A DNA stretch of 64,000 nt from Bacteroidota bacterium (GCA_002748055.1 PDRI01000095.1:3081-67080); one strand, 5' to 3'. Shown: positions 7,456 to 57,040, counted from the stretch's first letter. Notes: a model not told the origin generated them from the letters alone. Program-made: numbers and translations.

Positions 7456-7859
7456 GTGCTTGATTTTGCTTTCGAAATGCCTCCGGATTGGGTCCCTGGA
7501 GTGCACCTATACAAATCTAAAAGATTTTTGCTGCTGTCTGAGTCCTATTTGATTAACCCGATCAATTCTGCCATGAATTACGATGAAAAGCCCGGCAGAA
7601 AGAAATCTGTCCATCTGACAATTTATAAAATACTGTTATTCTGCGTATTATACAATCTCTCCCAAGCTTTATCCTGCACGAGTCAAAAACAGAAAAATCA
7701 ACAGCGATCAGAATTCATCAACGAAATTCTTCCATTTATACCGAAATTTTAACAGTTCGTCCAAATCAAGCTGTATCCGGAGAAATGCTCCCCGTGACGG
7801 AACAGCTATAACTGCACTTCGATGGCGACTTTTTCCATTGATTAGGACGGTGAGAATAC

Positions 7860-12800: not shown

Positions 12801-14772
12801 GACCGGCATGCCTCTGGATGTTCCACCGGGCACACAATTGTATTTCCGGTACCATGCGAGCAGCAGTAGTTTTGCATCCCATATTCAACATCTGGATGCA
12901 CCTGAGCGTGGGACACCGGCCTTCAACATCGACTTTGAGGAGGAACAAACGGTAGAAATTCTGACAGCCAATGATGAATATGCCACAAACATTGAAATGA
13001 GTGGTGCCAGAACCGGAACCGGAACCAGAATCGCGATCAGTCCGGGCACCAGTCTGTACTTTCGTTCAAAAGCCAGTGCTACGGCATATATGACGCTTGT
13101 CCAAACGCTTGTCGTACCCGAACGGCCCGAATTGCCGAACTTTGAGATCGACTACCAAAACGAAAGAACGAGCTCCATCGTCAGTTCCGGCTTCGAGTAC
13201 TCCAGCACTTCCGATATGCAGAATGCCTTAAACGGCACAGGATCCCATGTCGATCTGACACCCGGCAAGAACATGTATTTCAGGGTAAGAAGCGGTGCTT
13301 CTTCCTTCCACTCGGAGATTCAGACCCTGATTGTTCCTGGCAGGTCCGCGGCTCCGAACTTTGGCATTGATTTTATGGAAGAAGAAACGACTCCAGCACT
13401 TGGGAGTGAACATGAATATGCTTCCAATATTGATTTCAATGGTGCCATCAGCGGAAATGGAAATCCTGCCCCCCTTATCCCGGGCGAATCCATGTACATC
13501 AGGTTCAGGGCGCTTTCAGACGCATTTGCATCTGAGGCTCAACACCTGGTGGTTCCCGCAAGGCCCGACAGGCCATCCATCGGAATTGACTATGTGAGAC
13601 AGCGAACCGATGTAAGCATCCCTGCGTCTATTGAGTATTCGCTTCAGAGCAATATGCATGATGCAACAGCCGGCAGTGATGATTACCTCCAGGTACCTCC
13701 GCAAACCAATCTGTACTTCAGGGTAATCGGAACCACCACGACATTCAAGTCTGATGTTCAACACCTTTCCTCCCCTGCCAGGCCAGCGAAACCAGCTTTC
13801 GAAATCAATTATGCCCTGGAACAGACTAAAACAGCGGCAGCCGAAAACGTGGAGTACTCAACACAGAGCGACATGAGCAATTCCCTCATATCGGATGGCG
13901 ATTACATCCCCCTCACTCCCGGACAGGACTTCTATTTCAGATTTTTAGCTACAACCAGCTCTTACGATTCTGATATTCAACATCTTTCTGTTCCATCCAG
14001 AAGGCCTGCACCGGGATTTGGTTTTAGCTATGAGTCGGAACTGATCCTGCCGGCCATAAGCAGCAACTATGAGTATGCCGATAACCCGGAAATGACCAAT
14101 GCCCTAAGTGGCACTAACAACAGGCTAAGTGTGATTCCGGGACAGCCCCTCTATATCAGACAGAAGGCCGGTAACAATTCCTTTGCCTCTGAAACGCAAA
14201 TGATGGACATCCCTTCCCGACCGGTGCTCAGCAGCAGCGACACGGATACAACCGGCAGCAATCCACTGGTCCTGACCCTCACCTATCCGTCAAATATGAG
14301 TGATTTTGTCCAGGACAGCCTAAAGCTTGAAAATGCCAGCTTGCTTTCGGTCACAAAGATCTCCGAAGGAGACGATGCCAATGTCTATGAGCTTTCCTTA
14401 AACTGCACAGAAGGCGCGGTCAGGGCAGAACTGGCAGCCAACGCAATCCCGCAAGGCAGTTTCAGATCGGAACCCTTCAGCATCTATTACAAAGCAGGCT
14501 ATATCAATGGACTGCAGGAGTCCGGATCACTTTCGGTTAAACTCTATCCAAACCCGAACGCCGGAAGGCTCTTCCTGGAGTCCAATCAGGAGGCTGGCAG
14601 GCTTCAATACATTTGGATTTACAATGTTACAGGCAGCCTTGTACATACAGGCAGGCTTGATGGACAGTATCGTGCCGAGCTCAATCTCGAAGGATTGGAA
14701 AAAGGCATCTACTTCCTCAGAGTGGATACACAAAAGACAAGAATCCACTCCAAATTTCAACTTTATAAATAG
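9898..14772 (+). CDS. Giant secreted repeat protein (1624 aa). Order: signal peptide, unknown ~180-aa N-terminal domain, 17 tandem ~73-aa units, Ig-like module, T9SS C-terminal sorting domain.
   Basis: Signal peptide MKKGILTTLFLSFFLFLFFAPEAEAQ. Repeats have the consensus AP.F.IDY..E.T.......EYA...DMS.A..G.G....L.PG...YFR.KA....FAS..Q.L.VP.RP. The C-terminus KLYPNPNAGRLFLES...GIYFLRVDTQK..SKFQLYK matches the Por_Secre_tail pattern. Confidence 0.9.
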   Translation: MKKGILTTLFLSFFLFLFFAPEAEAQTVVFDQEIYWEHPIPKPYGGYGFYWWHRTDGGYYNINYGSMPSDNWSAYYNGEWTIRFEILDMPSSEPFTIQFGIWQDQDKGGAHPETVSGQQQIVPGSVYSASLGSPSSWWNKEPGDPVDFSRPGDFYRIGLVLWNPNPLCLLKGPEWGGGGCPENAYKYFPMRARVTVTATGGEAPPVDPPSYGIDYQNERSDAPVSSDDEYAYNADFSDAVSGSGAYLGLTPGQNVYFRKKADHSKTQTLEVPSRAAAPSFSINFQSEATNEAVSNAHEFASANDFSDAQDGNGNPVSIVPGQSLFIRTKATSSAFASETLALTPPARPAAPDFGIDFTNEVTTLAIPETMEYASSADMSEAVQGVGTPLSLSPGNELFFRYRATASDFASEQLHLEVPERPATPTYSIDYANETTAEAVSSSDDYSPASDMSGASAGNNEVLTLTPGSNLYFRTRATSNSFQSDIQTLVVPGRAATPSFSINFIAETTNEAAEDYMAYSTQADMSNPEFGGGDPIALNPGTDLYIRQESSAAGFQSDIQHLQVPEREAAPAFGFEYLTEQTSTAVGSDHEYADNSDFQNATSGNGEPAPVIPGQILYIRLKATAVAFASASQQLDIPARPEAPEIGIDFVAEETDDVISSSMEYATLPDMSDAVSGDGTAIAVAPNADIYIRYIATPSSFSSEIQHLDAPGRSPTPAYSIDFDHETTFQTIDELDEYSNDPGMAGATAGSGTVLALTPGSTVYFRTTAGTHGFLSEIQTLEIPARPETPAFSIDYLNESTLESLNNTFEYASRADMADAVSGTGSPAPLNPGNHSYFRQKASASEFRSGIQDLDVPGRPQAPEFDFDYLTEETTTSVGPGYEYAASSDFSDAITGNDNPAPVVPGQAFYIRAKSSTTSFASEAQVLAIPSRPDAPAVGINYLTEKTDVPIPETMAFSADADMTEAETGTGMPLDVPPGTQLYFRYHASSSSFASHIQHLDAPERGTPAFNIDFEEEQTVEILTANDEYATNIEMSGARTGTGTRIAISPGTSLYFRSKASATAYMTLVQTLVVPERPELPNFEIDYQNERTSSIVSSGFEYSSTSDMQNALNGTGSHVDLTPGKNMYFRVRSGASSFHSEIQTLIVPGRSAAPNFGIDFMEEETTPALGSEHEYASNIDFNGAISGNGNPAPLIPGESMYIRFRALSDAFASEAQHLVVPARPDRPSIGIDYVRQRTDVSIPASIEYSLQSNMHDATAGSDDYLQVPPQTNLYFRVIGTTTTFKSDVQHLSSPARPAKPAFEINYALEQTKTAAAENVEYSTQSDMSNSLISDGDYIPLTPGQDFYFRFLATTSSYDSDIQHLSVPSRRPAPGFGFSYESELILPAISSNYEYADNPEMTNALSGTNNRLSVIPGQPLYIRQKAGNNSFASETQMMDIPSRPVLSSSDTDTTGSNPLVLTLTYPSNMSDFVQDSLKLENASLLSVTKISEGDDANVYELSLNCTEGAVRAELAANAIPQGSFRSEPFSIYYKAGYINGLQESGSLSVKLYPNPNAGRLFLESNQEAGRLQYIWIYNVTGSLVHTGRLDGQYRAELNLEGLEKGIYFLRVDTQKTRIHSKFQLYK
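10519..14223 (+). repeat. Coding tandem array of 17 units of ~69-73 aa (207-219 bp), organised as a 4-unit super-repeat.
   Basis: The conserved aromatic anchor codon (F/Y of P.F.IDY) of the type-A units lies at 10735, 11611, 12487 and 13360, with spacings of 876, 876 and 873 bp. The last type-A unit is at 14017, a spacing of 657 bp (3 units). Unit 1 (anchor 10528) is a distinct variant ending DHSKTQTLEVP. Confidence 0.85.
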
Positions 14773-14798: not shown

Positions 14799-17273
14799 AT
14801 GAAAACAAAACATCTGATTCTCGCTTTTCTAAGCGTGCTCTTATCAATCGGTTTCGTGTCCAGGACAGAGGCCCAGACCACCGTTTTTGACCAGGAAATC
14901 TACTGGGAGCACCCCATTCCCAAGTCCTATGGAGGTTATGGCTTCTACTGGTGGCACCGGACCGATGGTGGCTACTACAATATTAATTACGGGAATATGT
15001 CTTCAACCGATTGGAGCCCCTACTATAACGGAGAATGGACCATCCGTCTCGAGGTTTTGGACATGCCTTCTTCCGAACCCTTCATCATCCAGTTTGGCAT
15101 CTGGCAGGATCAAAACAAGGGAGGCGCTCATCCCGAAACCGTATGCGGACAACAATTTGTAACCCCCGGATCGGTCTATACAGCAAGCCTGGGCAGTCCC
15201 AGCGGATGGTGGAACAAAGAATCCGGAGACCCGGTCGATTTTTACCGCCCGGAGGATTTTTACCGGATTGGCCTCGTGCTATGGAATCCCAATCCATTTT
15301 GCCTCTTAAAAGGCCCGGAATGGGGACCTGGTGGATGCCCGGAGAATGCATACAAGTTCTTTCCCATGCGCATGAGGGTTACTGTAACCGCCACGCAGGG
15401 TCCCGGCGGACAACCCATCAATCCCCCAAATTATGGCATCGACTACTATAGTGAAAGAACCAGCACTGTTGTTTCTTCGACTGACCAGTACAGCTATACT
15501 TCAGATTTCGCCACGGTTTATAACGGGAACAATGACTACCTAAACCTGACCCCGGGGCAAACCGTATATTTCAGAAAAGCCTCCGATCACTCGAAGACAC
15601 AGACCCTCAATGTGCCTGCGAGGCCGGCTGCACCCTCCTTCGCGATTGACTACGCAAACGAGGCGACAGCGACTGCCGTGTCCTCCGGCTATGAGTACGC
15701 TACCCAATCGAATATGAGTGATGCCGTCGACGGGAATGGCTCAGTTGTATCCATTGAACCCGGCTCCACCATTTACATCAGACAGAAAGCCACGAATTCC
15801 TCCTTCCTTTCCGACATCCAGACGCTTGCCGCACCGGCACGCCCTGCAGCTCCGGCTTTTGAAATCGACTACATGAGCGAACAGACCAGTACACCGGTGA
15901 GTGCCGACTACGAGTATTCTTCTGCTGCCGATATGACCGGGGCCGTTTCAGGTACTGGCCTTGCAGTGGCACTTACACCTGGTGAAACGAGCTACTTCAG
16001 ACAGAAAGCCAGTTCTTCTTCCTTCGCCTCTTCAATCCAGACCCTTGCTGCACCGGTAAGGCCGGCAGCTCCAGCTGCATTCTCTGTTGATTATCTGAAC
16101 GAGCGAACCGGCATACAAATTCCTGCAACAATGGAGTACAGCAGCAATCCGGCAATGGAGAACCCTACTGAAGGAAGCGGAACCTACCTGAGCCTCACAC
16201 CTGGCACCGACATGTATTTCAGAAACAAAGCCAGCGATGCGGCCTTTGCATCCGAAGCCTTCCATCTGGTTGTAGGAGCCCGTTCTTCTGCTCCAGGCTA
16301 TAGCATTGATTTTCTGAATGAAGCCACCACCGAAGCTGTAAGTGAGCAGGACGAGTATGCAACAAACCCGGAAATGACCGATGCACAGAGTGGAGAGAAT
16401 AAACCCATAGCGCTAATCCCCGACACTAGCATTTATCTCAGGACGAAATCAACCGTAACGGCCTTCGCCTCCGAAATCCAGACCCTCAGTGCACCAGCCA
16501 GGCCTGCAGGCCCGGTCTTTAGCATTGACTATGCAAATGAATCGACCGTGGAAGCTGTCAACAGCAACATCGAATATGCCGATAACGAGCAAATGAACAA
16601 TGCCCGTGCAGGGAGCGGAGAGACTGTCCCGCTTGTTCCCGGCACGACGCTGTACCTCAAAAGCAAAGCAAGCACAACGGCCTTTGCATCTTCGGTGAGC
16701 ATGCTTGAGGCTCCGGCACGACCTGTGATAAGCAGTAGTGAGTCGGAGAGTACGAGCAATAACCCCTTAGTCGTGAATTTCAGCTTTTCTTATACTGCAA
16801 GCGGCCTTACAACAGATGGAATCTCGGCTGAAAATGCCACAGTTAGCTCGATTAATCTGATCTCCTCTGAGCCTGATGGCAGCGTCTATGAATCGCTTAT
16901 TGTTGGCAATGCCAAAGGTGAAATCAGCCTGGTGGTCAATGCCAATGCCGTAAGTGAAGGCAATTTCAAATCGGATACCTTCAAGATAGATTACCTAACC
17001 AGCACAGGCCCGGAAAGGCCCGGAGAAAAGGCTTCGTTCAGGATCTATCCAAATCCGAGCTCAGGCAAGTTCTATATTAAAGGAAATCATTTTGACAATG
17101 AACAGATTGAGCTCTCGATCTATTCGGCAAGTGGCGTCCTTTCTTACAGAAACAGCAAGCTGAGAAGCGAAGATGAAATAGTCCTTCAGCTGGAAGGCCT
17201 GGAACCCGGTCTTTACTACCTGAAGGTAAAAGACGGAGACAGGATCCTGTCGGCCAAAATGGTGCTGGAGTAA
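14799..17273 (+). CDS. Paralog of the preceding gene (824 aa). Same N-terminal domain, 6 tandem ~72-aa units, Ig-like module, T9SS C-terminal sorting domain.
   Basis: Signal peptide MKTKHLILAFLSVLLSIGFVSRTEAQ. The N-terminal domain shows about 25 differences in ~177 aligned residues versus the upstream gene (manual count). C-terminus: RIYPNPSSGKFYIKG...GLYYLKVKDGDRILSAKMVLE. Confidence 0.9.
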   Translation: MKTKHLILAFLSVLLSIGFVSRTEAQTTVFDQEIYWEHPIPKSYGGYGFYWWHRTDGGYYNINYGNMSSTDWSPYYNGEWTIRLEVLDMPSSEPFIIQFGIWQDQNKGGAHPETVCGQQFVTPGSVYTASLGSPSGWWNKESGDPVDFYRPEDFYRIGLVLWNPNPFCLLKGPEWGPGGCPENAYKFFPMRMRVTVTATQGPGGQPINPPNYGIDYYSERTSTVVSSTDQYSYTSDFATVYNGNNDYLNLTPGQTVYFRKASDHSKTQTLNVPARPAAPSFAIDYANEATATAVSSGYEYATQSNMSDAVDGNGSVVSIEPGSTIYIRQKATNSSFLSDIQTLAAPARPAAPAFEIDYMSEQTSTPVSADYEYSSAADMTGAVSGTGLAVALTPGETSYFRQKASSSSFASSIQTLAAPVRPAAPAAFSVDYLNERTGIQIPATMEYSSNPAMENPTEGSGTYLSLTPGTDMYFRNKASDAAFASEAFHLVVGARSSAPGYSIDFLNEATTEAVSEQDEYATNPEMTDAQSGENKPIALIPDTSIYLRTKSTVTAFASEIQTLSAPARPAGPVFSIDYANESTVEAVNSNIEYADNEQMNNARAGSGETVPLVPGTTLYLKSKASTTAFASSVSMLEAPARPVISSSESESTSNNPLVVNFSFSYTASGLTTDGISAENATVSSINLISSEPDGSVYESLIVGNAKGEISLVVNANAVSEGNFKSDTFKIDYLTSTGPERPGEKASFRIYPNPSSGKFYIKGNHFDNEQIELSIYSASGVLSYRNSKLRSEDEIVLQLEGLEPGLYYLKVKDGDRILSAKMVLE
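15423..16724 (+). repeat. Coding tandem array of 6 units of the same ~72-aa repeat family.
   Basis: Units begin PPNYGIDY, APSFAIDY, APAFEIDY, AAFSVDY, APGYSIDF and GPVFSIDY. The first unit again ends DHSKTQTLNVP. Confidence 0.85.
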
Positions 17274-17352: not shown

Positions 17353-18942
17353 CTATCGGAGATACCTAAATGCAGCATCAATAACAAAGCTTCCCTCGCT
17401 CTGGTGCAGATGGTGGGTCGCAAGCAACCCCCGGTTAGAAGCCGGGTAAAAAACCCTTACAAGCTCTTCGCTGTATCCTTCAAGATCGAGTCTGACGATC
17501 CTGTTCAGGTTAAGGGCTTTTCCATAGATTCCGTCTTCGTTCCGTTGCGAAGGCCTGTAGAATTCCCCATTAAAGGAGAAGATCCTGCCTGCATTACGGG
17601 CCACCCGGCTATCAGTAATCACGGGATTCTGAGGATGGGGAATGATGCTGTTCAGTTTCAGGGAATCGACCTTATAAATATACAGCTCGCTGTCGACCGG
17701 ACTGTTTGGATCTGTTTGTTTGTTGGTAAACAACCATTTCTGCCCAAATTCATCATCAAAGAAAGAGGAATCGAAAAGGAGCTCCCCATGGAAAGCTGTT
17801 ACATAAAGCTCCCAGGAATCGGGAAAGCGCTTGCAGCGATAGATCTCCAGACGTTTATTCCCACTCGTTTCAGGCATTAAATACAACTCGCCCTGATCCT
17901 CAAAAATATTGGGATAGGACAAATGATAGGGTTTTACAAGTACATCTCTGATGTCGCTCAGTTCATGTCCCAGGAGCCTTCCACAGGAGATCTTGCCCAT
18001 CTGGCTTCTGTGATCGATGCTTTCAAAAAACACATACTGATCATCATTCTGCTTATACAGAAAAGGATCTGCCCATTCCTCACCTTTGCAGGGAAACACA
18101 ACATCGGTCCTGCATTTATCATGATCCAGAAAGTCGCCCTCTCCAAAGAACAGGGTCCAGCAAAAATAACGGCTGCTCCTGAGACGGTAATTCAGCCTGT
18201 GTAAAAGTTTGACAAAGAGGCCCGAATAGAATTGAAAGAGATAGTACAAGAAATGCCTTCCCCGTGGTAGTGCAGCATGCTGCTGTACTGAATCCGGGCC
18301 GGCATCTCTTCCTGCCGGAAGCTCGCCTGAAGCAAGCCTGCGCACTGCCTTCACCATTAGGGACACAGCCCCTTCCAAAGCCATCACCCTGCACTTTGAA
18401 ATGGAAAAACTCCGGTTGAAAAAGGCTTCATCAATAACAGACTGGGCCCCGAATTCCGATCCGCTGGCTATCAACCTGGCCCGTACACCCGCCTGCCTGT
18501 GCAACACCTCCCAGAAACCCACATGATGCTCATGTTTGTAGGCCTTCTCACCCAATTGCAGAGACAATGCTCCCAGGCGTGTTTTTACGACGAGAAGCTC
18601 CGGGGGCAGATCCAATTCAAGGCTGATGATAAGATCCGGACTGAAAGCACCGCTCAGGCCCTGCCCATCGTTCCCAAGAGCAACAATCTCGGTACCATCC
18701 AGCAAATCACCCGGCACTCTTTCTCCGGACTCGATCCCAAATAGTTGCCTTTCGAGCTTCATCTCCATCTCAAAGCAAGGCTCCCACCATCTTCCGGGTC
18801 GGAATTTGTGCCTGCATGAAGTTTCAAACCGATAAACAGTAGTCAGGCAAAGATCCGGATGCGCCAGAATCTCCCTGAGTATCCTCAACTTCCAGTTGGG
18901 AATCGCTTCGATGTCGTTGAGATATACGCCAAGGCTCAGCAT
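17353..18942 (-). CDS. Two-domain protein of uncertain function. The N-terminal half is formyltransferase-like. The C-terminal half resembles the bacterial family annotated as glucosamine inositolphosphorylceramide transferase (GINT1-like).
   Basis: The track ORF begins with TTG at 18945 and the ATG follows immediately at 18942. C-terminal motifs EEWADPFLYK, YVFFESID, HLSYPNIFEDQGELYLMPETSG, LEIYRCKRFPDSWE are recalled from that family. The assignment is from memory only. Confidence 0.45.
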   Translation of the reverse strand: MLSLGVYLNDIEAIPNWKLRILREILAHPDLCLTTVYRFETSCRHKFRPGRWWEPCFEMEMKLERQLFGIESGERVPGDLLDGTEIVALGNDGQGLSGAFSPDLIISLELDLPPELLVVKTRLGALSLQLGEKAYKHEHHVGFWEVLHRQAGVRARLIASGSEFGAQSVIDEAFFNRSFSISKCRVMALEGAVSLMVKAVRRLASGELPAGRDAGPDSVQQHAALPRGRHFLYYLFQFYSGLFVKLLHRLNYRLRSSRYFCWTLFFGEGDFLDHDKCRTDVVFPCKGEEWADPFLYKQNDDQYVFFESIDHRSQMGKISCGRLLGHELSDIRDVLVKPYHLSYPNIFEDQGELYLMPETSGNKRLEIYRCKRFPDSWELYVTAFHGELLFDSSFFDDEFGQKWLFTNKQTDPNSPVDSELYIYKVDSLKLNSIIPHPQNPVITDSRVARNAGRIFSFNGEFYRPSQRNEDGIYGKALNLNRIVRLDLEGYSEELVRVFYPASNRGLLATHHLHQSEGSFVIDAAFRYLR

Positions 18943-18981
18943 CAAAAGGCCTGTATTGGTCTCAGAGAGAGATGGAAGGAA

Positions 18982-28187: not shown

Positions 28188-31100
28188 TTAATGGACCAGT
28201 AACCTGCGCGTAACGGCCCTGTCTCCGACGATGAGCATAACTGCATATACACCATCCTCCAAAAACGAAGATAAGGAAAATGACAATTCAATTGAATTCG
28301 TTGCTTCGCCCCCTGAAAAAGAATCAAGCGGTTCATCTGCATTTGAACAAAGGTCGCCAAGCTCCAGCTTCTGCACATAAACAATTTGTCCCATCATATC
28401 GGAAATCCTTAAATAAGCCGGACCTGAATTACTTAGTGAACACTCTATATGCATCCTGAAATCACCACTATTGGGATTTGGATAGAGGACCATATACAAA
28501 CTATCATTGTAGTAATCTGGCAATACATTCTCCAGAATCAACTCTTTCATCTCCCCCAGGACGTAACCCTGGTCGGTCTTCGCAAAGGGAGTTACCTCAT
28601 AGGAAGTATTCTCATCCACAAAAAGGCTGGTAGTGTAGTTAATCTCTCCGGGACCGGCATCGTAATTCCTTAGAATTTCTTCGTCGCTCAAAGCTCTGCT
28701 GTATATTGCTGCCAAATAGAAAATTCCACGCCAGGGCCTTTCTCCTGTAAGTTCATTCGCAAATACGAGCTCATAATTATCCGAAAAGCTCGAGAAATCC
28801 CCGTCCCTTCGTCCGCTATAAACCTTGTCCCCATCAATAAAGATGGATTCCTCCCCACCTGATCCACGCTTATACACCACATGGTAAAGCCCCGGAACCG
28901 TATGATTCTCTTCGGTCAGAATCTCGGGAAACCCATTCTCCGTAGACGATGTTGTATTCAGGCGGGAGGCAAAATTAAAGAAAGCCTGGTTTCCGCTCTG
29001 CCCCAACATGAAAGCCCGGTTATTATTGTCTAACGACAGTCCCATAATCCGGGCAGGGCCGCTCTGACTTACCTCCGATGGTCGAATCCAGGTTTCAAGT
29101 GTTAACTCGTTTGTAGATTTCAAACTGGCAATTAGTTCCTTTGGGATAGCTTCAGATTTGATGATTGTATTCCCGTCTACCTTCAGTCCCTGCCCCGGGA
29201 GCCATGAGGTACCCAATGGGTTTATAATATCCAGGTTGATTGGGTCATCACGATCACTGCGATCATATACCCGCATCCCATTTCCATGCGAAAAATCATA
29301 GAGTAATTCCAAACCACGGCTGACACGCTTTTCGTGCCCAACTTCGGAAAATTCCTGATCTGCATAAATGACCCTGTCTTCGTATTCAACGATATTGTTC
29401 GTATCTCGTTTGGTAACCAACAAGCCGTAGTTCTGCAAATTGGTATGCCCGTGAGTTTCCATCTGAGAAACAGCCGCAGCTACGTTGGGCGAAAGCGTAG
29501 ATAAAAATTCAACAATTTGCACCTCAGGTAAGCTTGCGACAACTAAGCCCTGACTTTTCGTTGTTTCTACAATCTCATTGGAAGGCAGACTTTCATTCAG
29601 TGCATGATCATAAGCCACAACCCGTATAGCATAGCTAATGCCCGGACTGAGTCCGGTAAGCGTATAGTTATTCCCCGTCGACTCTCCTCTGGCGAAGCCA
29701 TTAACGATGATACTATAACCAGTAACCCCGACATTGTCAATGGAGGGGGTCCATTCAATTGATATCGAGGTTTGTGAGACAAGCGTAGATTTGAGATTTC
29801 CTGGTGGAGAAGGAGGATCTACATCTGGCGCCCGAGTCCTCACCCGTAGCATCTCACTTGGAGCGCTCATATTTACAGATGCATCAACCGCAACTATATA
29901 CACATCGTATTGGGAGCTGTGATTCAGCCCCCTGAGATCAAAATAAGTATAAGGTGTTGTGCCATGCCACCTGTCCTCAGGTTCCTCAACAGAATAAATC
30001 ATGTACCCCCCCATTTCTGCGTCATCCGTAGACGCATCCCAAGAAAGTGTAACAGAATTTTCCGTAGAATCTGTTGCGAGCAGATTCTGAGGGACCGTTG
30101 GCGGGGTTATATCAAGATCTGTAGTCGAGACATAGAGCTCTGTGCTTCGACCGCTCTCATTTCCTGCCTTATCATAGGCGCTGACCGAAAATGAATAGGG
30201 AGAATTCGGCTCAAGACCAGCAACCCTGCAAGTCCTTGTACTCGTGGTAGTCACTTCGACTCCTTGCTTGTAAACACGGTATCCGGCAACACCAACATTA
30301 TCGATGGATGCTCCCCATTCCAAGTCAATAAAAGTACCCGTCACATTACTGGTTTTCAGACCTCCCGGGACTGATGGCGGACTGTTATCAACCTCTGGCT
30401 CCTGATGCTGGGTCTTCATATTGGGCAGCTCCAGAACCCTGCCGGGGGGGCTTACAACATTCCCTCTGGGAACATTCATGTCGTCTCCGTAGGTAAAACA
30501 GACGAAATCATCCAACAAGGTCCATTCCTTGCGCACAGGTTTCCAAATAGAGGTGTTCCCTCCAAAAAAATGCCCCAAAGAAATCTGGTTCACCCCCTTA
30601 TCGATATCAGAAGCTGTTAGCAGATACATCCCTGATTTGGATTCAACCAGCTTTCCATCAATAAAGCCTTCCATGATCCCGTCAGAATTGGGAACGCCTC
30701 CCGTGAAAGAATTGATAACAACACGAATGGTTATGTTATACCATCTTGGCTCCGAAACATCAAACTTAAAACGCCCATTATCATAGTCGAGGCCTTCGGG
30801 TTGATAGGTATCCCAGAAGTCTGTCTCCCCCCACTCATCCCGATTCTGATTCTGGTAGAAACAGTAAAAGGCCAAACCTCCATAGGGCTGAAACATAATT
30901 GCAGTTGAATAGCCTTCCCCTTCTCCCGGACGAACGCAATTCTGCTGAGTAGCTTTGTTTAAAGGAGACCCACCATTGGTCGCCGGAAGCTTTCCTCCCA
31001 TCGCAAAATCAAAACCAGGCCTGAAAAACACATTATAGGAAAGGTACATTTCTTTCGGTTCTGCACCAATGTTCACCTTCCAGTAATCTCCACCCCTGTA

Positions 31101-31514
31101 TGGTGACTCCCCTGAATAGCCTCCCACCACAGTATCGGTGAAATTAAACTTCATCGCAACACTCCCGGTGAGTGGATCCAATACAATGCTGTCTTTAATA
31201 TGGTTTGCAAACCAGGAAGGCCAGCGGTTATCACCATCTCTCCATCCGGGATAACTCCAATCGGGATTCCAAAGATCCGTTGTATACTCAAAAGGGATTT
31301 GACGATTCCGGTGATGCTCCAGGTCCTGCGAATAGATGATATTAAAACTGGCCGGCTTTTTCCCGCCATCTTCGGTTTTACCAACATTCTCATCCAGTCT
31401 GCCCGGCTGTGACCATCCACTACCTACCATTGCCAAAAAGGCCAGGCCCCATCCAAGTCGTAGACTCCTCCACCTCCCCTTGCGCTTACCCATACAAATC
31501 TGAACCATCACCAT
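28188..31514 (-). CDS. Large secreted protein (1108 aa). Order: signal peptide, jelly-roll domain tentatively PL14-like (polysaccharide lyase), 3 FN3 domains, LamG (Laminin_G_3-like) domain, T9SS C-terminal sorting domain.
   Basis: N-terminal domain: YLSYNVFFRPGFDFAMGGKLPATNGG...C, which resembles the GGKLPGLYGG motif I recall for PL14. FN3 x3 at ~29560-30385 (IDLEWGASIDNVGVAGYRVY..., VTLSWDASTDD..., ISIEWTPSIDNVGVTGYSI...). LamG-like: LTLETWIRPSE...FANELTGERPWRGIFYLAAIYSRALSDEEI. Tail: LYPNPNSGDFRMHIE...VMLIVGDRAVTRRLLVH. Confidence 0.8.
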   Translation of the reverse strand: MVMVQICMGKRKGRWRSLRLGWGLAFLAMVGSGWSQPGRLDENVGKTEDGGKKPASFNIIYSQDLEHHRNRQIPFEYTTDLWNPDWSYPGWRDGDNRWPSWFANHIKDSIVLDPLTGSVAMKFNFTDTVVGGYSGESPYRGGDYWKVNIGAEPKEMYLSYNVFFRPGFDFAMGGKLPATNGGSPLNKATQQNCVRPGEGEGYSTAIMFQPYGGLAFYCFYQNQNRDEWGETDFWDTYQPEGLDYDNGRFKFDVSEPRWYNITIRVVINSFTGGVPNSDGIMEGFIDGKLVESKSGMYLLTASDIDKGVNQISLGHFFGGNTSIWKPVRKEWTLLDDFVCFTYGDDMNVPRGNVVSPPGRVLELPNMKTQHQEPEVDNSPPSVPGGLKTSNVTGTFIDLEWGASIDNVGVAGYRVYKQGVEVTTTSTRTCRVAGLEPNSPYSFSVSAYDKAGNESGRSTELYVSTTDLDITPPTVPQNLLATDSTENSVTLSWDASTDDAEMGGYMIYSVEEPEDRWHGTTPYTYFDLRGLNHSSQYDVYIVAVDASVNMSAPSEMLRVRTRAPDVDPPSPPGNLKSTLVSQTSISIEWTPSIDNVGVTGYSIIVNGFARGESTGNNYTLTGLSPGISYAIRVVAYDHALNESLPSNEIVETTKSQGLVVASLPEVQIVEFLSTLSPNVAAAVSQMETHGHTNLQNYGLLVTKRDTNNIVEYEDRVIYADQEFSEVGHEKRVSRGLELLYDFSHGNGMRVYDRSDRDDPINLDIINPLGTSWLPGQGLKVDGNTIIKSEAIPKELIASLKSTNELTLETWIRPSEVSQSGPARIMGLSLDNNNRAFMLGQSGNQAFFNFASRLNTTSSTENGFPEILTEENHTVPGLYHVVYKRGSGGEESIFIDGDKVYSGRRDGDFSSFSDNYELVFANELTGERPWRGIFYLAAIYSRALSDEEILRNYDAGPGEINYTTSLFVDENTSYEVTPFAKTDQGYVLGEMKELILENVLPDYYNDSLYMVLYPNPNSGDFRMHIECSLSNSGPAYLRISDMMGQIVYVQKLELGDLCSNADEPLDSFSGGEATNSIELSFSLSSFLEDGVYAVMLIVGDRAVTRRLLVH

Positions 31515-31579: not shown

Positions 31580-31587
31580 CAAAAATA
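31580..31587 (-). promoter_or_regulatory. Candidate -7 promoter box (TAnnTTTG on the minus strand).
   Basis: Plus-strand CAAAAATA equals minus-strand TATTTTTG. It lies ~66 bp upstream of the ATG at 31514 and is embedded in the 12-bp palindrome TTTTTGCAAAAA. Confidence 0.35.
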
Positions 31588-41223: not shown

Positions 41224-43428
41224 TTAATTTCCAGATAGTTGCAGAATTAGTCTGCCGGTTTTCAATATTTTGGTGCATCCCTTTTCGGATAGCCTGTAAA
41301 AGTACATTCCATTTCTGAGGCTGCCGGCCCTTAGATCAATCGACGAGGAAGCCCCGGAGAGTTCCCTTTGCAGGATCACTCGTCCATTCATGTCGATCAA
41401 TTCAAAACTGACAGAACGACCCGGATCTTGGGGCAACTCCACACGTATCAAATCACGCACCGGATTGGGGTAGACCCTCAATGCTTCTGCTTCAAACCGA
41501 TTGCCTGCCGATGTAGATTCAAACACGCGAAGGTTGAAGGACTGGAAGCTGGTGTCAATTCCATCACTTACCCCAAGGGTTACCAGTGTTTGTCCGAGAT
41601 CTGCTTTGGTCGGGGTGCCAATCAGCACCTGTGAAGCGGGGTTGAAATCGAGCCAGTCCGGAATGCTGTAATCGAAATAGACCAGCGGATCGTTTTCATT
41701 GTCGCTGGCTGTTATTCCGTAGCTATAGGTATTCCCTACCTCTGCCGAGTCCTTGGGCACCGATCCGATTTCCGGCGGATAGTTGTAATAAACAACAGCA
41801 AGTTGGAAGGCCTGGGTGGTAGTAGCAATGCCGTCGGAGACCGTAAGCACAATGCTCTCGACCCCGGCCTGATTTCTGGCAGGTGTTCCGCTGACCAGAC
41901 CGGTGGAGGGATGAATCGTCATCCAGCCAGGCTTCTGGTTGGCCCCGTATTGCATCACATCCTCCGGGTCCTGGTCGGAAACAACCAACTGGTAACTATA
42001 GGTGTGCCCCGTCTTAACACTCAGGGGGGGAGATGAGAGGATGATGGGTGGATAGTTCACAACATCCACGCTGATTACCAGGTTATAGACATTCGATTCC
42101 CGCCCATTGGCAATAGCCTTTACCGGAACCTGCAGTTCACCATTAAAACTCAGATCGGGTATAATAGTCTGCCCCTGAACAGTATAGTTCGATCCGTTTC
42201 CGACTATCAGGACCATTCCGGCAGGAGCCTTCTCGTTCTCGACCAGTATGAGGTCAGCTGGTGTAATCGTATGTGTCGCCCCTTCTGCAATCGAAATGTT
42301 TTGCTGACCAATAATCTCGGGAATCCAGTTTACCGTAAAATCCACCAGGCAGGATGAAGACTTCCGGAGAATCTCCAGAACCCTTCCATCATCCGTGGCT
42401 ACAAACTCAATGGTCTCCATTCCGCTCCATTGCTCATTGCGCGGAACAACCGTAGCCACATGGCTCACCGGATCGATGCTCACTGAAAAATGCTCGGGGG
42501 AAGCAGGGGATACTGACCAATCAATGTTGGCAGCAGGTGTTTCCGGATCGGATACATAGGCATCAAGGGAAATGGTCGAAAAAGCCTCTCCCCGATCCGC
42601 ATCCTGGTTCGCAATCTGACTAAGCGTCGGCGTGCTGTTATAATTGTCAATCTCCTCAAACCATAAATCGGCCATCTTGTCGTAGCCGTTCTGGTTGGGA
42701 TGCAGCTCATCCGTCATATCATTAGTATAATCAATGCCTGCCGCACACTCCATATCGACCAGCTCAAGATGGTCGCCCATTGCGATTCTGCTCTGCACCA
42801 GCGATGTCAGATTGTTGTTAAAAGCAACCACACCGGACCGGGTATTGCAAGCATAGCCCTTTTCACTAATAACCTTGGAAACAAAGACCAGCACCGGATT
42901 TCCACTCGACTGCTCATATGTATCTACGGCATCCAGAATAGCTTCCACATGATTCACCCCGGTCTGCCCCTGCTGAATATCATTCGTACCAATATGCAAA
43001 AGAATGATATCGGCCTGGTTCGATGCCGTATTCAGATAGGGGCCCGGGCTGACTACTCCGGTGTGCGAAGAAGTTCCCGTTTCCATCACAGCGGCGAGCT
43101 CCCAGCTGTGAATTCCGGCAAAACCTCCATGATAGGGATCTGACATTACACTTTGTCCACTGCGTTCGCTCCCCACGAAATCGGGATTGTACCCGGCATC
43201 TGCCAACAGGTTATAAAGGTGGTGGCGATAGCCTATTGCACTGGCATCTGCCAGGGGCTGACAGGATCCTATCGCGCCATTCGTGCACCAAACCCCCTTG
43301 GTAATTGAATTTCCAAGTGGCAGAACCTTTAACTGGGCCCGGCTATCAACTGTTGTAAAAGCCAGGAAAAAGACCCAAAGTACAAGGAAAAAAGAAAAGG
43401 CATTTATCGAACGGGGCGATTTCTTCAT
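41224..43428 (-). CDS. Secreted SGNH/GDSL hydrolase fused to Ig-like and dystroglycan-type cadherin-like repeats and a T9SS C-terminal sorting domain.
   Basis: 734 aa with a signal peptide. SGNH blocks: VLPLGNSITKG, LLHIGTNDI, DELHPNQNGYDKMA. Cadherin-like repeats: PGWMTIHPSTGLVSGTPARNQAGVESIVLTVSDG and IPDWLDFNPASQVLIGTPTKADLG. Tail: RVYPNPVRDLIRVEL...GMYFYRL. Confidence 0.85.
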   Translation of the reverse strand: MKKSPRSINAFSFFLVLWVFFLAFTTVDSRAQLKVLPLGNSITKGVWCTNGAIGSCQPLADASAIGYRHHLYNLLADAGYNPDFVGSERSGQSVMSDPYHGGFAGIHSWELAAVMETGTSSHTGVVSPGPYLNTASNQADIILLHIGTNDIQQGQTGVNHVEAILDAVDTYEQSSGNPVLVFVSKVISEKGYACNTRSGVVAFNNNLTSLVQSRIAMGDHLELVDMECAAGIDYTNDMTDELHPNQNGYDKMADLWFEEIDNYNSTPTLSQIANQDADRGEAFSTISLDAYVSDPETPAANIDWSVSPASPEHFSVSIDPVSHVATVVPRNEQWSGMETIEFVATDDGRVLEILRKSSSCLVDFTVNWIPEIIGQQNISIAEGATHTITPADLILVENEKAPAGMVLIVGNGSNYTVQGQTIIPDLSFNGELQVPVKAIANGRESNVYNLVISVDVVNYPPIILSSPPLSVKTGHTYSYQLVVSDQDPEDVMQYGANQKPGWMTIHPSTGLVSGTPARNQAGVESIVLTVSDGIATTTQAFQLAVVYYNYPPEIGSVPKDSAEVGNTYSYGITASDNENDPLVYFDYSIPDWLDFNPASQVLIGTPTKADLGQTLVTLGVSDGIDTSFQSFNLRVFESTSAGNRFEAEALRVYPNPVRDLIRVELPQDPGRSVSFELIDMNGRVILQRELSGASSSIDLRAGSLRNGMYFYRLSEKGCTKILKTGRLILQLSGN

Positions 43429-43517: not shown

Positions 43518-45917
43518 TTATTCAATGATCAGTTTACGCGTTGCATACTGTCCGTTTTCATGAACCCGCAGGAAGTAAACCCCGGATTGCAGATCGGAAA
43601 CATCAAGGCGTATCCTGCCCTCACCCGGATTAAGGGACTTCTGGAAGACAAGTTTACCGGCAATATCTGAAAGCTCGACCCTTTCCGGATTTCCGGTGAA
43701 CTCGGCAAAGATGAAGTCCTTCGCCGGGTTTGGATAAACACGGCTGAGCACAGACTCACCCTTTTCAATTCCATTTGGCCAGTTATGGACTGTAAGAATA
43801 AACTGGTGGTTTACAGAAATCTGCCCATCACTAAGGGTAATCATCACCGTATGCACTCCCACATCGTCCAGTCCGGGGGTACCGCTCAATACCTTGGATC
43901 CCATATCGAAAGTCAACCAGGACGGAATAACTGCCGGAATGTAGGTAATGGGGTCATTCTGGTGATCAACCGCAGTGAGCAGATAGGTATACAGGCTGCC
44001 GCGCATAGCACTGTCGACCGGAGTTGAAAGCACTTCCGGAGCCGTATTGACTGCATTAACCGTGATGGAAAAGTCCTGAAGGGTTTCTACATATCCATCC
44101 GAGACATAAAGTGAAACCGGATTCTGTCCTGCATTTGCTGCTGCAGGTGTACCACTCAGGGTTTGGGTTTCCGGATCAAAGGTCAGCCAGCTGGGCAGCA
44201 CCTTGGCACCATAAGTCAGGACATCGCCATCCTGATCATAGCCAGCCATCACATAGGTGTATTCGCTGTAGTTATCGATCGTAGTAGCCGGGGTTGAGGT
44301 AACCTGCGGAGGATGATTATCGGAGGTTACCGTAATTGTAAATTCATGTATTACAGACAACTGACCATCAGAAATCGTGATGCTCACCAGATGGTCCCCA
44401 ACGTCTTCCCGGGCAGGCTGGCCACTCAGGGTATGGGAAACGGGGTCGAAACTCAACCAGGCCGGAATCGTTGTTGCCTCATAACTCAGGGGATCCTGAT
44501 CCGGATCGGTCGCCAACACCGTATAAACATAGATACTCCCTTCCAGAATAGAGGTAATCGGGTTAGAGCTCACGACAGGGGCGTCATTCACATTGATCAC
44601 CTGAAGTGTGAAATCCTGATAGACTGTCGTAATGCCATCGCTGGCACTCAGCCTTATCGCATGGTTTCCGACATCGCTGTCCTGAGGAGTACCGCTCAGC
44701 ACACCCGTAGAAGCATTAAAGCTCAGAAAATCGGGAATATTCTCATCATTGAGGGTAAGGGGATCGTTTTTGTAGTCACCGGCCTCAAAGGTGTAAGAAT
44801 ACAAATTCTCCTCGGAAACGGTGTCGATGGGTACCGACTTAATAATGGGGAAGTAGTCCTGGGGCTTGCAGTGCATGCGACCATTCAAGCCATCCTGATA
44901 GGCCTCGTTCACTTCAGCGTTGGTCATCGCCTTCCCGTAAACGAAGATATCGTCCATGGCGCCATTCAGGGGATAGAGGTTAGAGGGGTGAGCCGACCAG
45001 TAGCCAATGTCCAGCTGATCGTCCCCGTCTCCTTCAAAACCTGCTGAACCATAATTGAAGCTTTGAGTTGTCTTAGCTCCATTCAGGTACAGGGCAATTA
45101 CCTTGCCGATCCCGTCATAAGTCACAACCAAATGGTTCCACTGGTTATTAATGACAGAGGAATTGCTCCACAATGTGGTGTAATTAGCGGCGGGAACATT
45201 TTTTGGCTTGATCTGCCAGAACGCCTTGTTACCATAAGTGGGTGCAATTCCCGTCAGCCAGAAAAACGTATTATCAGCAACAGTACCGCGGGCCATAAAG
45301 ACCTGGTTGTTGGGGTCACCGAAATTCTCGTAATTGCCCTTGGAATAGAACCAAAGTGAAATCGAAAAGCCTTCATTTGCAGCAAAGTCGTACTGGCCGT
45401 TGTCATTCACACTCATAAAATAGGAATTGGTCCGGGTATCAGGTGTAAAGACCTTTCCACCAGCAACCATGGCTGTGGTATCCTTCAGGCTGGTGGTAGT
45501 CTGCCCGTCATACCCCCCTTTAAAATCTGTTAAATCGCCGTCCAACTGCCAGTAGGAAATAAGGTCGTTATCACAAACAATCTGACCGGCAAGGTAGATG
45601 TAAAACGAGCGAACCGACTCTCCGATCGCATTGCGGGCCTTCACCGTAACGATACCGCCCTGGCTACTGGCGTTGGGAAACCAGCTGATCACTCCTGATG
45701 TAGCGTCGATAGACATGCCCTGAGGGGCATTCACAAGTGAATAAATCTCTGGCGGATCCGCATTCTCGGCATCCACGTCATAGGTAAACCACTGTCCAAG
45801 AATGGCCGTCTGATCGGCTATCGGGCCAATATAGGGTGCCTCAGCAGCAAAAGTAGTGCTGAGGGCAGCAAACAGCAGCAACACTGCCATTAGGTTTGTA
45901 AGGTATTTCTTTCTCAT
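43518..45917 (-). CDS. Secreted adhesin-like protein. Order: signal peptide, one Ig-like repeat, LamG (Laminin_G_3-like) domain, four dystroglycan-type cadherin-like repeats, T9SS C-terminal sorting domain.
   Basis: 799 aa. LamG-like region: FSISLWFYS...WNHLVVTYDG...LYLNG...MDDIFVYGKAMT. Repeats: IPDFLSFNASTGVLSGTPQDSDVGNH, IPAWLSFDPVSHTLSGQPAREDVGDH, LPSWLTFDPETQTLSGTPAAANAG, IPSWLTFDMGSKVLSGTPGLDDVG. Tail: RVYPNPAKDFIFAEF...GVYFLRVHENG. Confidence 0.85.
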   Translation of the reverse strand: MRKKYLTNLMAVLLLFAALSTTFAAEAPYIGPIADQTAILGQWFTYDVDAENADPPEIYSLVNAPQGMSIDATSGVISWFPNASSQGGIVTVKARNAIGESVRSFYIYLAGQIVCDNDLISYWQLDGDLTDFKGGYDGQTTTSLKDTTAMVAGGKVFTPDTRTNSYFMSVNDNGQYDFAANEGFSISLWFYSKGNYENFGDPNNQVFMARGTVADNTFFWLTGIAPTYGNKAFWQIKPKNVPAANYTTLWSNSSVINNQWNHLVVTYDGIGKVIALYLNGAKTTQSFNYGSAGFEGDGDDQLDIGYWSAHPSNLYPLNGAMDDIFVYGKAMTNAEVNEAYQDGLNGRMHCKPQDYFPIIKSVPIDTVSEENLYSYTFEAGDYKNDPLTLNDENIPDFLSFNASTGVLSGTPQDSDVGNHAIRLSASDGITTVYQDFTLQVINVNDAPVVSSNPITSILEGSIYVYTVLATDPDQDPLSYEATTIPAWLSFDPVSHTLSGQPAREDVGDHLVSITISDGQLSVIHEFTITVTSDNHPPQVTSTPATTIDNYSEYTYVMAGYDQDGDVLTYGAKVLPSWLTFDPETQTLSGTPAAANAGQNPVSLYVSDGYVETLQDFSITVNAVNTAPEVLSTPVDSAMRGSLYTYLLTAVDHQNDPITYIPAVIPSWLTFDMGSKVLSGTPGLDDVGVHTVMITLSDGQISVNHQFILTVHNWPNGIEKGESVLSRVYPNPAKDFIFAEFTGNPERVELSDIAGKLVFQKSLNPGEGRIRLDVSDLQSGVYFLRVHENGQYATRKLIIE

Positions 45918-54181: not shown

Positions 54182-54236
54182 ACCGGCTCGATGAAAATCC
54201 AATGCCCGGAAAGCTAAGCCGGGCAGGCTAAAAAAG

Positions 54237-54267
54237 GCTCCCGGCTTACCCCCGGGAGCTTTTTTTT
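54237..54267 (+). terminator. Rho-independent terminator.
   Basis: GCTCCCGG-cttaccc-CCGGGAGC followed by TTTTTTTT, and preceded by an A-tract. Confidence 0.8.
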
Positions 54268-54369
54268 GTTCCACTGCTCCTTTCAAATGCCCGATCACGT
54301 GCAAAAAAGTGCAAATGCCAACGAAATGTTAATCCCGGACACAATCAATGTTTTATAACATAATTTCTA

Positions 54370-54377
54370 TACTTTTG
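54370..54377 (+). promoter_or_regulatory. Candidate -7 promoter box (TAnnTTTG).
   Basis: TACTTTTG lies 20 bp upstream of the ATG at 54397. Confidence 0.4.
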
Positions 54378-54396
54378 TGGTAAAATTATTCAGCTT

Positions 54397-57010: not shown

Positions 57011-57040
57011 ATTTTATAAAACTGTGGACCTGGGCTTCTC

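Follow-up and report, generated by a model that had tools for sequence, protein, structure and literature searches.

A T9SS-type protein with a PL14/PL36-related β-jelly-roll domain encoded in an extracellular polysaccharide locus of Bacteroidales

The gene described here occupies positions 28188-31514 on the minus strand of a window of 64,000 nucleotides from a Bacteroidota bacterium (GCA_002748055.1 PDRI01000095.1:3081-67080), the window being the whole stretch of DNA that was analyzed. The open reading frame listing gave an ATG start, a stop codon at 28188-28190 and a multidomain, predicted secreted protein of 1108 amino acids, in exact agreement with the coordinates and length of a preliminary description. 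All features given below lie on the same strand. The neighboring genes, also on this strand, are a GT4 gene 138 nt upstream and wecB 49 nt downstream, and the surroundings encode PGT, Wza, Wzc, Wzx/Wzy-like proteins and many glycosyltransferases. The host locus is a Wzx/Wzy-Wza/Wzc-type extracellular polysaccharide (EPS) locus of Bacteroidales, and these adjoining genes bear out the earlier placement of the gene within a polysaccharide biosynthesis locus. No terminator-like site was found between the gene and either neighbor. The sigma-70 promoter and terminator scan, which is uninformative for Bacteroidota, was at or below the shuffle background. By sequence inspection, TATTTTTG at 31580-31587, 66 nt upstream of the ATG, was noted as a possible Bacteroidota -7 promoter element, on the basis of TAnnTTTG, which we take to be the consensus. 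The Rfam scan of the window returned no matches. For O-acetylation, the locus also encodes an MBOAT of the AlgI type together with an AlgX-like partner.

The sugar-nucleotide genes of the window indicate a CDP-activated C-methyl deoxyhexose and ManNAc, and neutral, amino, C-methyl and O-acetyl sugars are predicted from the locus. No uronic-acid synthesis gene or UDP-sugar dehydrogenase was found in the whole window. Since there was no SusC-type gene among the annotated genes of the window, and only one of the 62 neighbor-gene clusters of related loci gave a SusD match, the locus is not a polysaccharide-utilization locus.

The protein opens with a signal peptide and a β-jelly-roll, continues with three FN3 domains, a small β-domain and a LamG domain, and ends in a type A C-terminal sorting domain (CTD) of the T9SS, which carries an insertion. 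Every domain previously described (jelly-roll, three FN3, LamG and T9SS CTD) was thus recovered. A full-length ortholog (P0007/L001) of 1088 amino acids is 47% identical across aa 55-1108, whereas a look-up of the exact protein sequence returned no record. The signal peptide (~aa 1-35, 31410-31514) was recognized by sequence inspection as a basic n-region, KRKGRWRSLR, followed by the hydrophobic LGWGLAFLAMVGSGW, with a likely cleavage site close to SGWS/QP, and hydrophobic leaders are found at the N-terminus of homologs as well. Three tandem FN3 domains (aa ~376-462, 463-560 and 561-650; 29565-30389) were matched by Pfam fn3 in three stretches with an E-value of 4.6e-31, together with an fn3_2 match at aa 380-452, and they are probably spacers. 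The NCBIfam match to 'exoglucanase CbhB' was rejected as a functional clue, as it reached 163 bits against a cutoff of 1950 and covered the FN3 region alone. The small all-β domain (aa ~663-730, 29325-29528) was seen as strands at residues 24-90 of the AF2 model of aa 641-1108. No family match was found for this domain, and the alignment with P0003 showed that it is conserved in P0003 and other homologs.

The LamG/concanavalin-A-like lectin domain (aa ~735-950, 28665-29312) was identified by Pfam Laminin_G_3 at aa 797-947 (E=2.9e-14). The AF2 model of aa 641-1108 was of moderate quality, with a pLDDT of 70.5, and its Foldseek matches were lectin-type jelly rolls, namely neurotoxin HCN domains, a sialidase lectin domain and domain 4 of AbnA. 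The LamG domain is probably a carbohydrate-binding module. No second catalytic domain was found in the C-terminal half, for which Foldseek returned generic lectin-like structures only.

The CTD (aa ~1004-1108, 28191-28505) was assigned from TIGR04183 and a CTD alignment. It scored 23.0 bits against TIGR04183, exactly at the cutoff of 23, and 18.2 bits against Pfam Por_Secre_tail (PF18962), below the cutoff of 27; these weak scores are explained by an insertion of 21 residues. The domain aligned with the T9SS CTDs of four other cargo genes in the window, among which YPNP...G...L...L..G.Y is invariant. The protein therefore combines a CTD with an N-terminal signal peptide, as type A T9SS cargo does, the signal peptide being recognized from sequence inspection only. 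We infer that the 1108-aa protein is secreted and displayed on the cell surface, and the earlier proposal of T9SS export with adhesion- or lectin-type modules is supported, at the level of prediction, by the CTD, FN3 and LamG matches and by the C-terminal fold. Since T9SS-exported SGNH/GDSL proteins are also encoded in the EPS locus, the protein would fit into a set of extracellular polymer-tailoring enzymes.

The N-terminal β-jelly-roll (aa ~57-372, 30399-31346) is clearly related to the PL14/PL36 polysaccharide lyases, with a putative catalytic or glycan-binding function. The likeness to PL14 that had been suspected from the sequence was upheld by three independent tests, namely the Pfam profile, a profile search of the PDB and the predicted fold. 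In the whole protein, Pfam PF21294 (Polysacc_lyase_14) matched aa 141-333 with an E-value of 1.2e-21 and 77.8 bits against a cutoff of 27, and the jelly-roll domain alone scored 80.9 bits against the same cutoff. All 28 aligned relatives matched this profile as well. Searched against PDB sequences, the family profile ranked AkAly30 (PL14, 8e-31) above Aly36B (PL36, 5e-22) and the latter above vAL-1 (PL14, 4e-16), while a single-sequence phmmer search of the PDB gave vAL-1 as the only match (E=1.4e-5). The AF2 model of the domain had a pLDDT of 85.2 and a pTM of 0.88. Each of its top eight Foldseek matches in the PDB was a polysaccharide lyase with a jelly-roll fold (PL14, PL36 or PL20), with target-normalized TM scores of 0.70 for 5gmt (PL14, E=9e-14), 0.76 for 6kzk (PL36), 0.68 for 3gne (PL14) and 0.63 for 2zzj (PL20), and the predicted fold is thus a β-jelly-roll matching solved PL14 and PL36 structures. 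The preliminary description would have been contradicted by the lack of any PL or GH profile match or by a match to a lectin family only, and neither was observed. Homologs of PL14 and PL36 are hard to distinguish (PMC11890756). The branch of the PL14/PL36 superfamily to which the query belongs comprises about 3800 clusters at 50% identity, 346 of them matching at E<=1e-30, and to our knowledge no member of the clade of the query has been characterized.

Active-site residues were counted over 180 family domains, 172 of which are complete. The residue roles of AkAly30 are in part presumed. Roles in the lyases were taken from PMC3764139, PMC8286568 and PMC8618178, and offsets were derived from alignments of the PDB chains. 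In the alignments, Lys175 in GGKLP (30990-30992) is equivalent to the catalytic Lys of vAL-1 (K197), AkAly30 (K99) and Aly36B (K143), and Lys is found at this position in 174 of the 180 domains. This residue is contained in FDFAMGGKLPATNGG (aa 168-182), the motif on which the initial comparison with PL14 had been based. Tyr217-Cys218-Phe219 (30858-30866) corresponds to the Y-x-Y motif of PL14/PL36, with the first Tyr kept and the second changed to Phe. Tyr217 is aligned, with conserved spacing, with the first active-site Tyr (vAL-1 Y233, AkAly30 Y140, Aly36B Y185), which is Tyr in 171/180 domains, and Phe219 replaces the second one (vAL-1 Y235, AkAly30 Y142, Aly36B Y187), a position at which 158 of the 180 domains carry Tyr and 12 carry Phe. 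In PL36, the Lys and the first Tyr have been proposed as the acid/base and proton-transfer residues, and the Lys of Aly36B has been proposed to act as both base and acid (PMC8286568). Both residues are present in 164 of the 172 complete domains. Retention to this degree suggests that the cleft is under selection, for which there would be no need in a module with a structural role only.

At the position of the active-site Arg (vAL-1 R221, which is R116 in the PDB; AkAly30 R128; Aly36B R169), the query has Ala205 (30900-30902), with ungapped spacing in all three lyase alignments. In vAL-1 this Arg binds the substrate (PMC3764139), and in PL36 it is part of the conserved active-site center (PMC8286568). 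Across the 180 domains, position 205 is Arg in 58, Gly in 42, Leu in 15 and Ala in 11, and the canonical Arg is kept in about 31% of the family; the full canonical tetrad is found in about a third of the complete domains (53/172). In the query, neither Lys nor Arg occurs at any of the cleft positions 203, 205 and 209, whereas 113 of the 172 domains have at least one such residue there. Gln209 is aligned with Gln120 of vAL-1, a residue that contacts the bound glucuronate (PMC3764139). Arg264, Asn268 and Glu282 are near-invariant in the family, and Arg264 and Glu282 are not present in AkAly30 or Aly36B. Arg264 was considered as a compensatory swap for the lost Arg and rejected, as its invariance does not depend on the presence of Arg205. 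An R264-E282 pair, charge-swapped in AkAly30, was also dropped, as the outcome varied with the alignment used. The structure prediction and active-site comparison recommended at the outset thus returned the lyase fold and two of the four canonical residues (K/A/Y/F). The tentative lyase assignment stood as far as the superfamily and the retention of Lys175 and Tyr217 are concerned, while its enzymatic part stays tentative in view of Ala205, Phe219 and the lack of a uronate-synthesis gene in the window. Because two of the four canonical residues are absent, we consider lyase activity of the jelly-roll domain only plausible.

In 33 of the 42 genome hits, which are nearly all from uncultured Bacteroidales, the homolog lies in a Wzx/Wzy-type locus comparable with that of the query, a locus being counted when the homolog was flanked by at least two EPS-type genes. 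The link to an EPS locus is therefore firmer than could have been known from the single sequence, and both the context in the window and the 33/42 loci indicate that the gene, like that of the dedicated glycanase AlgL, is embedded in a biosynthesis cluster and inherited with it. At least two copies were present in 19 of the 42 loci, with two to five paralogs per locus in such relatives. The search for uronate-synthesis genes covered the whole window and the neighbor genes of the 42 loci, and UDP-glucose/GDP-mannose dehydrogenase accounted for only one of 62 neighbor-gene clusters. A literature search for PL14 combined with EPS and T9SS returned nothing relevant.

From the domain architecture, the homology to the lyase superfamily, the preserved Lys and Tyr and the recurrent link to EPS loci, we tentatively propose, with a probability of roughly 0.45, that this is a cell-surface protein dedicated to the polysaccharide of its own locus, probably as a depolymerase. 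The protein would cross the inner membrane through its Sec signal peptide and be exported by the T9SS through its CTD, followed by release or by anchoring to the outer membrane. The three FN3 modules would hold the jelly-roll domain off the cell, and the LamG module would aid polymer binding. The substrate would be the EPS of the locus itself, which the jelly-roll domain would most likely cleave or trim when newly exported, thereby controlling chain length or release. Cleavage would proceed through the conserved Lys175/Tyr217 pair, as in the PL14 and PL36 lyases. This depolymerase reading is weakened because β-elimination needs a uronic acid and the window lacks a UDP-sugar dehydrogenase, and a simple trimming role is weakened because two to five paralogs per locus exceed what it would need.

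The main competing explanation, which we regard as rather unlikely, is a non-catalytic surface lectin or tether, in which a PL14-like domain that has lost its lyase activity would, together with LamG, only bind the locus polysaccharide. Anchored through the T9SS, the protein would then keep the capsule or EPS attached to the cell, or organize the matrix. The absence of the canonical Arg, of the second Tyr and of any basic residue at positions 203, 205 and 209 would be expected of such a protein, as would the adhesion-type FN3 and LamG modules; the uronate pathway is absent from the window and rare in related loci, and the tandem paralogs in 19/42 loci fit a structural or binding repertoire. 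However, Lys175 and Tyr217 are kept, as their equivalents are in 164/172 domains, which is more than binding usually demands, and the full tetrad in 53/172 indicates that the clade has not degenerated as a whole. If catalysis is retained, the lyase scaffold with its Lys and Tyr could also have been turned to other chemistry on a neutral or unusually substituted polymer, e.g., as a hydrolase or transglycosylase, by epimerase-like proton abstraction or by elimination at another acidic sugar. The family-specific Arg264, Asn268 and Glu282, the low retention of the canonical Arg and the sugars predicted from the locus are consistent with this possibility, but the activities reported for PL14/PL36 are alginate, oligoalginate and glucuronan lyase (PMC11890756), and no precedent for other chemistry was found in the cited literature. 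We consider this possibility improbable.

It is very unlikely that the protein is a foraging or antagonistic lyase which degrades a foreign polysaccharide (e.g., algal alginate or glucuronan) or the matrix of a competitor, with its position in the EPS locus being incidental. The characterized PL14 and PL36 enzymes do act on exogenous alginate or glucuronan, and glycan-degrading enzymes are common T9SS cargo in Bacteroidota. However, the position in an EPS locus recurs in 33/42 genome hits, no SusC/SusD pair or uronate catabolism genes were found adjoining the gene, and the active-site Arg is lost. Returning to a protein that processes its own polymer, the sequences would also permit a broader proposal, which we consider unlikely: T9SS-exported PL14-like proteins, of which a locus encodes one to five paralogs, may represent an unrecognized core part of a widespread Bacteroidales EPS system, forming a surface polymer-processing layer with the SGNH/GDSL enzymes. 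Their remodeled site (Lys/Tyr and Arg264/Glu282, without the canonical Arg), acting on a polymer maybe without uronic acid, would then amount to a new activity on the lyase scaffold.

The extracellular polysaccharides of environmental Bacteroidota are poorly understood, and so is the control of their chain length, release and attachment. Surface processing of the cell's own polymer by this protein, if it takes place, would link the T9SS to EPS maturation and define a function for a large uncharacterized branch of the PL14/PL36 superfamily; if the substrate lacks uronic acid, the known chemistry of the fold would be extended. If the protein only binds, a lyase scaffold would here have been co-opted for tethering a capsule. 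In both cases there would be a gain for the annotation of such proteins, which database records now label 'hypothetical', 'LamG-like' or 'chitodextrinase'.

Among the known systems, AkAly30, an alginate lyase from Aplysia kurodai (PL14, PDB 5GMT), gave the best profile match (8e-31) and the best Foldseek E-value, with a TM score of 0.70. It shares with the query the β-jelly-roll, GGKLPG with the catalytic Lys, the S-x-[R]-x-M-W strand, an equally spaced Y-x-Y strand and FFGG. However, the structural alignment shows only ~16-18% identity, and the query has Ala for Arg128 and Phe for Tyr142. AkAly30 is a digestive enzyme of a eukaryote, has a single domain and acts on polymannuronate, whereas the query is an 1108-aa bacterial T9SS cargo from a biosynthetic locus. 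Aly36B, an alginate lyase from Chitinophaga sp. (PL36, PDB 6KCV/6KCW/6KZK), had a profile match of 5e-22 and the highest target-normalized TM scores (0.74-0.76). Both proteins are from Bacteroidota and have in common an N-terminal 'DFE..G.Y....W' extension, the Lys (K143) and the Tyr (Y185), but Aly36B has the full K143/R169/Y185/Y187 center where the query has K/A/Y/F, and it is a small catabolic enzyme encoded outside EPS loci, whereas the query is encoded inside one. The cell-wall lyase vAL-1 of Chlorella virus CVK2 (PL14, PDB 3A0N/3GNE/3IM0), with glucuronan-type specificity (EC 4.2.2.14), has TM scores of 0.67-0.68 to the query and shares with it 'FDFA.GGK' and a Gln that follows the M-W/F strand (vAL-1 Gln120, PMC3764139). 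This viral enzyme attacks the host cell wall and has Arg116(221) and Tyr130(235) in place of the Ala and Phe of the query.

Dedicated glycanases are known from EPS operons, among them AlgL (PL5) from those for alginate, PslG, PelA and BcsZ. Like these, the query is a protein of polymer-cleaving type that is encoded in a biosynthetic cluster and inherited with it. However, AlgL, PslG, PelA and BcsZ are periplasmic, single-domain proteins of synthase-dependent systems, whereas the locus of the query is of the Wzx/Wzy-Wza/Wzc type, and the query itself is predicted to reach the cell surface through the T9SS, carries FN3 and LamG domains and often occurs as tandem paralogs.

The gene at 28188-31514 on the reverse strand, with exact ORF bounds in the ORF listing, encodes a protein of 1108 aa that, judged by sequence, begins with a Sec signal peptide (MVMVQICMGKRKGRWRSLRLGWGLAFLAMVGSGWSQ...). 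In Pfam, Polysacc_lyase_14 (PF21294) was matched at residues 141-333 (E = 1.2e-21; 77.8 bits, gathering cutoff 27), fn3 in three stretches at residues ~376-650 (E = 4.6e-31) and Laminin_G_3 at residues 797-947 (E = 2.9e-14). At the C-terminus, Por_Secre_tail gave a weak match below its cutoff (18.2 bits against 27), and the NCBIfam model for the T9SS type A sorting domain, TIGR04183, reached its cutoff exactly (23.0). About 105 C-terminal residues can be aligned with the CTDs of four further T9SS cargo proteins in the window, with YPNP, a Gly, two Leu, a Gly and a Tyr invariant; the 21-residue insertion in our protein accounts for its low scores. Despite these scores, the alignment leads us to accept the C-terminus as a T9SS CTD. 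The jelly-roll, three FN3 domains, LamG domain and sorting domain listed in the preliminary description are therefore all present. A model of residues 641-1108, of moderate confidence (pLDDT 70.5), is all-beta, with a small beta sandwich (~663-730), the LamG domain (~735-950), a further small beta unit and then the CTD. The PDB structures that it resembles are ConA/LamG domains of a generic lectin type (HCN domains of neurotoxins, the lectin domain of a sialidase and, in the arabinanase AbnA, carbohydrate-binding domain 4), and no second catalytic domain was found in this half by model or structure matches.

The N-terminal jelly-roll had been likened to PL14-type lyases, with a PL or GH profile match and a structure prediction proposed as checks, and both agreed with the likeness. 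The PF21294 match lies well above its cutoff. Searched against PDB sequences, the domain alone matched vAL-1, the PL14 lyase of a Chlorella virus (E = 1.4e-5), and a family profile built from 28 relatives matched AkAly30 (PL14, Aplysia kurodai; 8.3e-31), Aly36B (PL36, Chitinophaga; 4.6e-22) and vAL-1 (3.5e-16). The AlphaFold2 model of residues 36-376 is confident (mean pLDDT 85.2, pTM 0.88), and in a Foldseek search of the PDB jelly-roll polysaccharide lyases took all of the top eight places, with target TM scores of 0.70 for AkAly30, 0.74-0.76 for Aly36B, 0.67-0.68 for vAL-1 and 0.63 for the PL20 glucuronan lyase; lectin-like folds rank below them. Sequence and model together argue for a genuine relative of the PL14/PL36 lyases, and by descent the protein is a member of this jelly-roll superfamily. 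Homologs of PL14 and PL36 are difficult to tell apart (PMC11890756), and the same ambiguity holds for this family.

The strand spacing between the protein and the lyases is ungapped in both single-sequence and family-profile alignments, so the residue mapping is firm. Numbering offsets were taken from PDB chain alignments and cross-checked against published residues: Cys115, Cys124 and Gly118 of AkAly30 (PMC8618178), the substrate contacts Arg116 and Gln120 of vAL-1 (PMC3764139), and the PL36 centre of Lys143, Arg169, Tyr185 and Tyr187, in which Lys143 serves as acid/base and Tyr185 takes part in proton transfer (PMC8286568). Lys175, in a GGKLP motif, corresponds to K197 of vAL-1, K99 of AkAly30 and K143 of Aly36B, and Tyr217 to Y233, Y140 and Y185, respectively. 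Ser203 (S219, S126 and a Thr) and Gln209 (vAL-1 Q225, PDB Q120; no AkAly30 or Aly36B entry) are also kept. The active-site comparison suggested earlier thus came out divided, since Ala205 replaces the Arg (R221, PDB R116; R128; R169) and Phe219 the second Tyr (Y235, Y142, Y187). The protein has the profile, the fold, the Lys and the first Tyr of the superfamily, and by alignment it retains the proposed acid/base pair but has neither the Arg that binds substrate nor the second Tyr.

Among 172 complete family domains, 164 carry the Lys and first Tyr, 145 the Lys and both Tyr, and only 53 the full canonical tetrad. At least one Lys or Arg occurs at position 203, 205 or 209 in 113 of the 172; our protein belongs to the minority with no basic residue there, and its second Tyr is also missing. 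Arg264 (168/180), Asn268 (176/180) and Glu282 (158/180) are near-invariant in the family, and in the alignment Arg264 and Glu282 are absent from AkAly30 and Aly36B at the matching positions.

As had been described, the gene is embedded in a biosynthetic locus, and most of its neighbors share its strand. Around it lie a polyprenyl glycosylphosphotransferase (TIGR03025, above its cutoff), Wza (Poly_export), a Wzc-like GNVR/P-loop protein, two polytopic membrane proteins without Pfam match (Wzx and Wzy in all probability), some ten glycosyltransferases, one of them of the WecG/TagA/CpsF family, WecB (above its cutoff), a glucose-1-phosphate cytidylyltransferase (431 bits, cutoff 300), an SDR, an RmlC-type epimerase, a C-methyltransferase, and an MBOAT with an AlgX-like partner. 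These genes make up a Wzx/Wzy-dependent locus for EPS or capsule, whose predicted product is an O-acetylated polymer with ManNAc and a CDP-derived C-methyl deoxyhexose among its sugars. A search across the whole window turned up no UDP-sugar dehydrogenase. At the locus edge, a 530-aa protein (17353-18945, reverse strand) matches GINT1_N (glucosamine inositolphosphorylceramide transferase 1 N-terminal; E = 3.7e-33), a domain not usually met in bacterial EPS clusters. At 53213-58049 (forward strand), two xylose-isomerase-like TIM-barrel proteins are clustered with a DUF4914 protein (940 bits) and a 3-keto-disaccharide hydrolase, which suggests a module for 3-keto-glycoside catabolism that has nothing to do with the EPS locus.

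Two other T9SS cargo genes lie inside the locus on the reverse strand, encoding a GDSL/SGNH + He_PIG + CTD protein (41224-43428) and a protein with five He_PIG, LamG and CTD (43518-45917). They adjoin the MBOAT/AlgX-like O-acetylation pair, and the SGNH protein could act outside the cell on the locus polymer, as an acetyl-esterase or an acetyltransferase. Flanking the locus on the forward strand are T9SS-CTD proteins of 1624 aa (9898-14772) and 824 aa (14799-17273) with barely any recognizable domain. A giant ORF (1-7506, reverse strand; at least 2502 aa) is cut off by the left edge of the window, its C-terminus lying beyond; it has an N-terminal GDSL/SGNH, seven FN3, HYR and PKD, and shares with the PL14-like protein a design of enzyme head and FN3 spacers.

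A word-indexed search returned only 6 close relatives, while an exhaustive profile search returned about 3800 clusters at E≤1e-3, of which 346 reached E≤1e-30; many are of ~1000 aa with the domain N-terminal. Species-representative genomes held 42 homolog loci, nearly all of them in uncultured Bacteroidales MAGs, and the best locus (L001) encodes a full-length ortholog (P0007, 1088 aa, 47% identity over residues 55-1108). ORFs called in these loci were compared with the window proteins, and 33 of the 42 have two or more EPS-type genes of the window kinds within 10 kb; the link to such loci is therefore conserved and not incidental. Recurring neighbors include WecB/WecG, GT4s, Wzx/Wzy-like proteins, PGT-Wza-Wzc and an MBOAT-AlgX-RfbF-SDR-RmlC-C-methyltransferase block. 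At least two PL14-like genes, often adjacent, occur in 19 of the 42, some apparent duplicates being one frameshift-split gene. Some Bacteroidales MAGs carry several across ~30-45 kb of one contig with EPS genes (L008/L027/L030 on CAVTBM010000004.1, ~676-719 kb; L016/L017; L018/L021), several apparently frameshift-split (e.g., 124 aa + 813 aa). Fifteen related loci (including L003, L004, L008, L009, L023, L026, L029, L031, L032, L036 and L041) encode a ~500-aa protein without Pfam match bearing an 'AGSDSR' PP-loop-like motif (e.g., L032:7261-8769), often directly next to or between PL14-like paralogs; the window has no homolog of it. Four loci lie on contigs labeled Anaerolineales, 'uncultured archaeon' or Woesearchaeota (L011, L024, L033, L034). 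Of these, L024 and L033 carry the domain C-terminally (residues ~350-650) and lack EPS-type neighbors; either mis-binning or a differing architecture could lie behind this.

We infer that the protein acts on its own locus's polymer at the cell surface. The leading reading, with a probability of a little under one half, is a surface-displayed depolymerase or trimming enzyme, in which the Lys/Tyr pair would cleave or trim that polymer. That Lys and Tyr are so strongly conserved favors catalysis; a binder or tether that descends from a lyase scaffold but has no catalytic activity ranks next and is rather unlikely. The missing Arg and second Tyr and the absent uronate pathway speak against a uronate lyase of the classical kind; a changed chemistry acting on a uronate-free polymer is considered improbable. 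Among 62 representatives of neighbor genes unmatched to the window, UDP-glucose/GDP-mannose dehydrogenase and SusD each occur once, and the single SusD argues against a polysaccharide-utilization-locus context. A foraging lyase for foreign polymers ranks last, with very little probability.

The annotation of this protein is sound and well supported, the activity as depolymerase or trimming enzyme being putative, and there is nothing categorically new about it; its association with EPS and T9SS is conserved and unstudied. Database names of its relatives are uninformative, and a literature search found no paper on proteins combining a PL14-like domain, three FN3, LamG and a T9SS CTD, an architecture and context unmatched among characterized members. 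In mode of action, its closest analogues would be AlgL and other glycanases whose genes lie in EPS operons.
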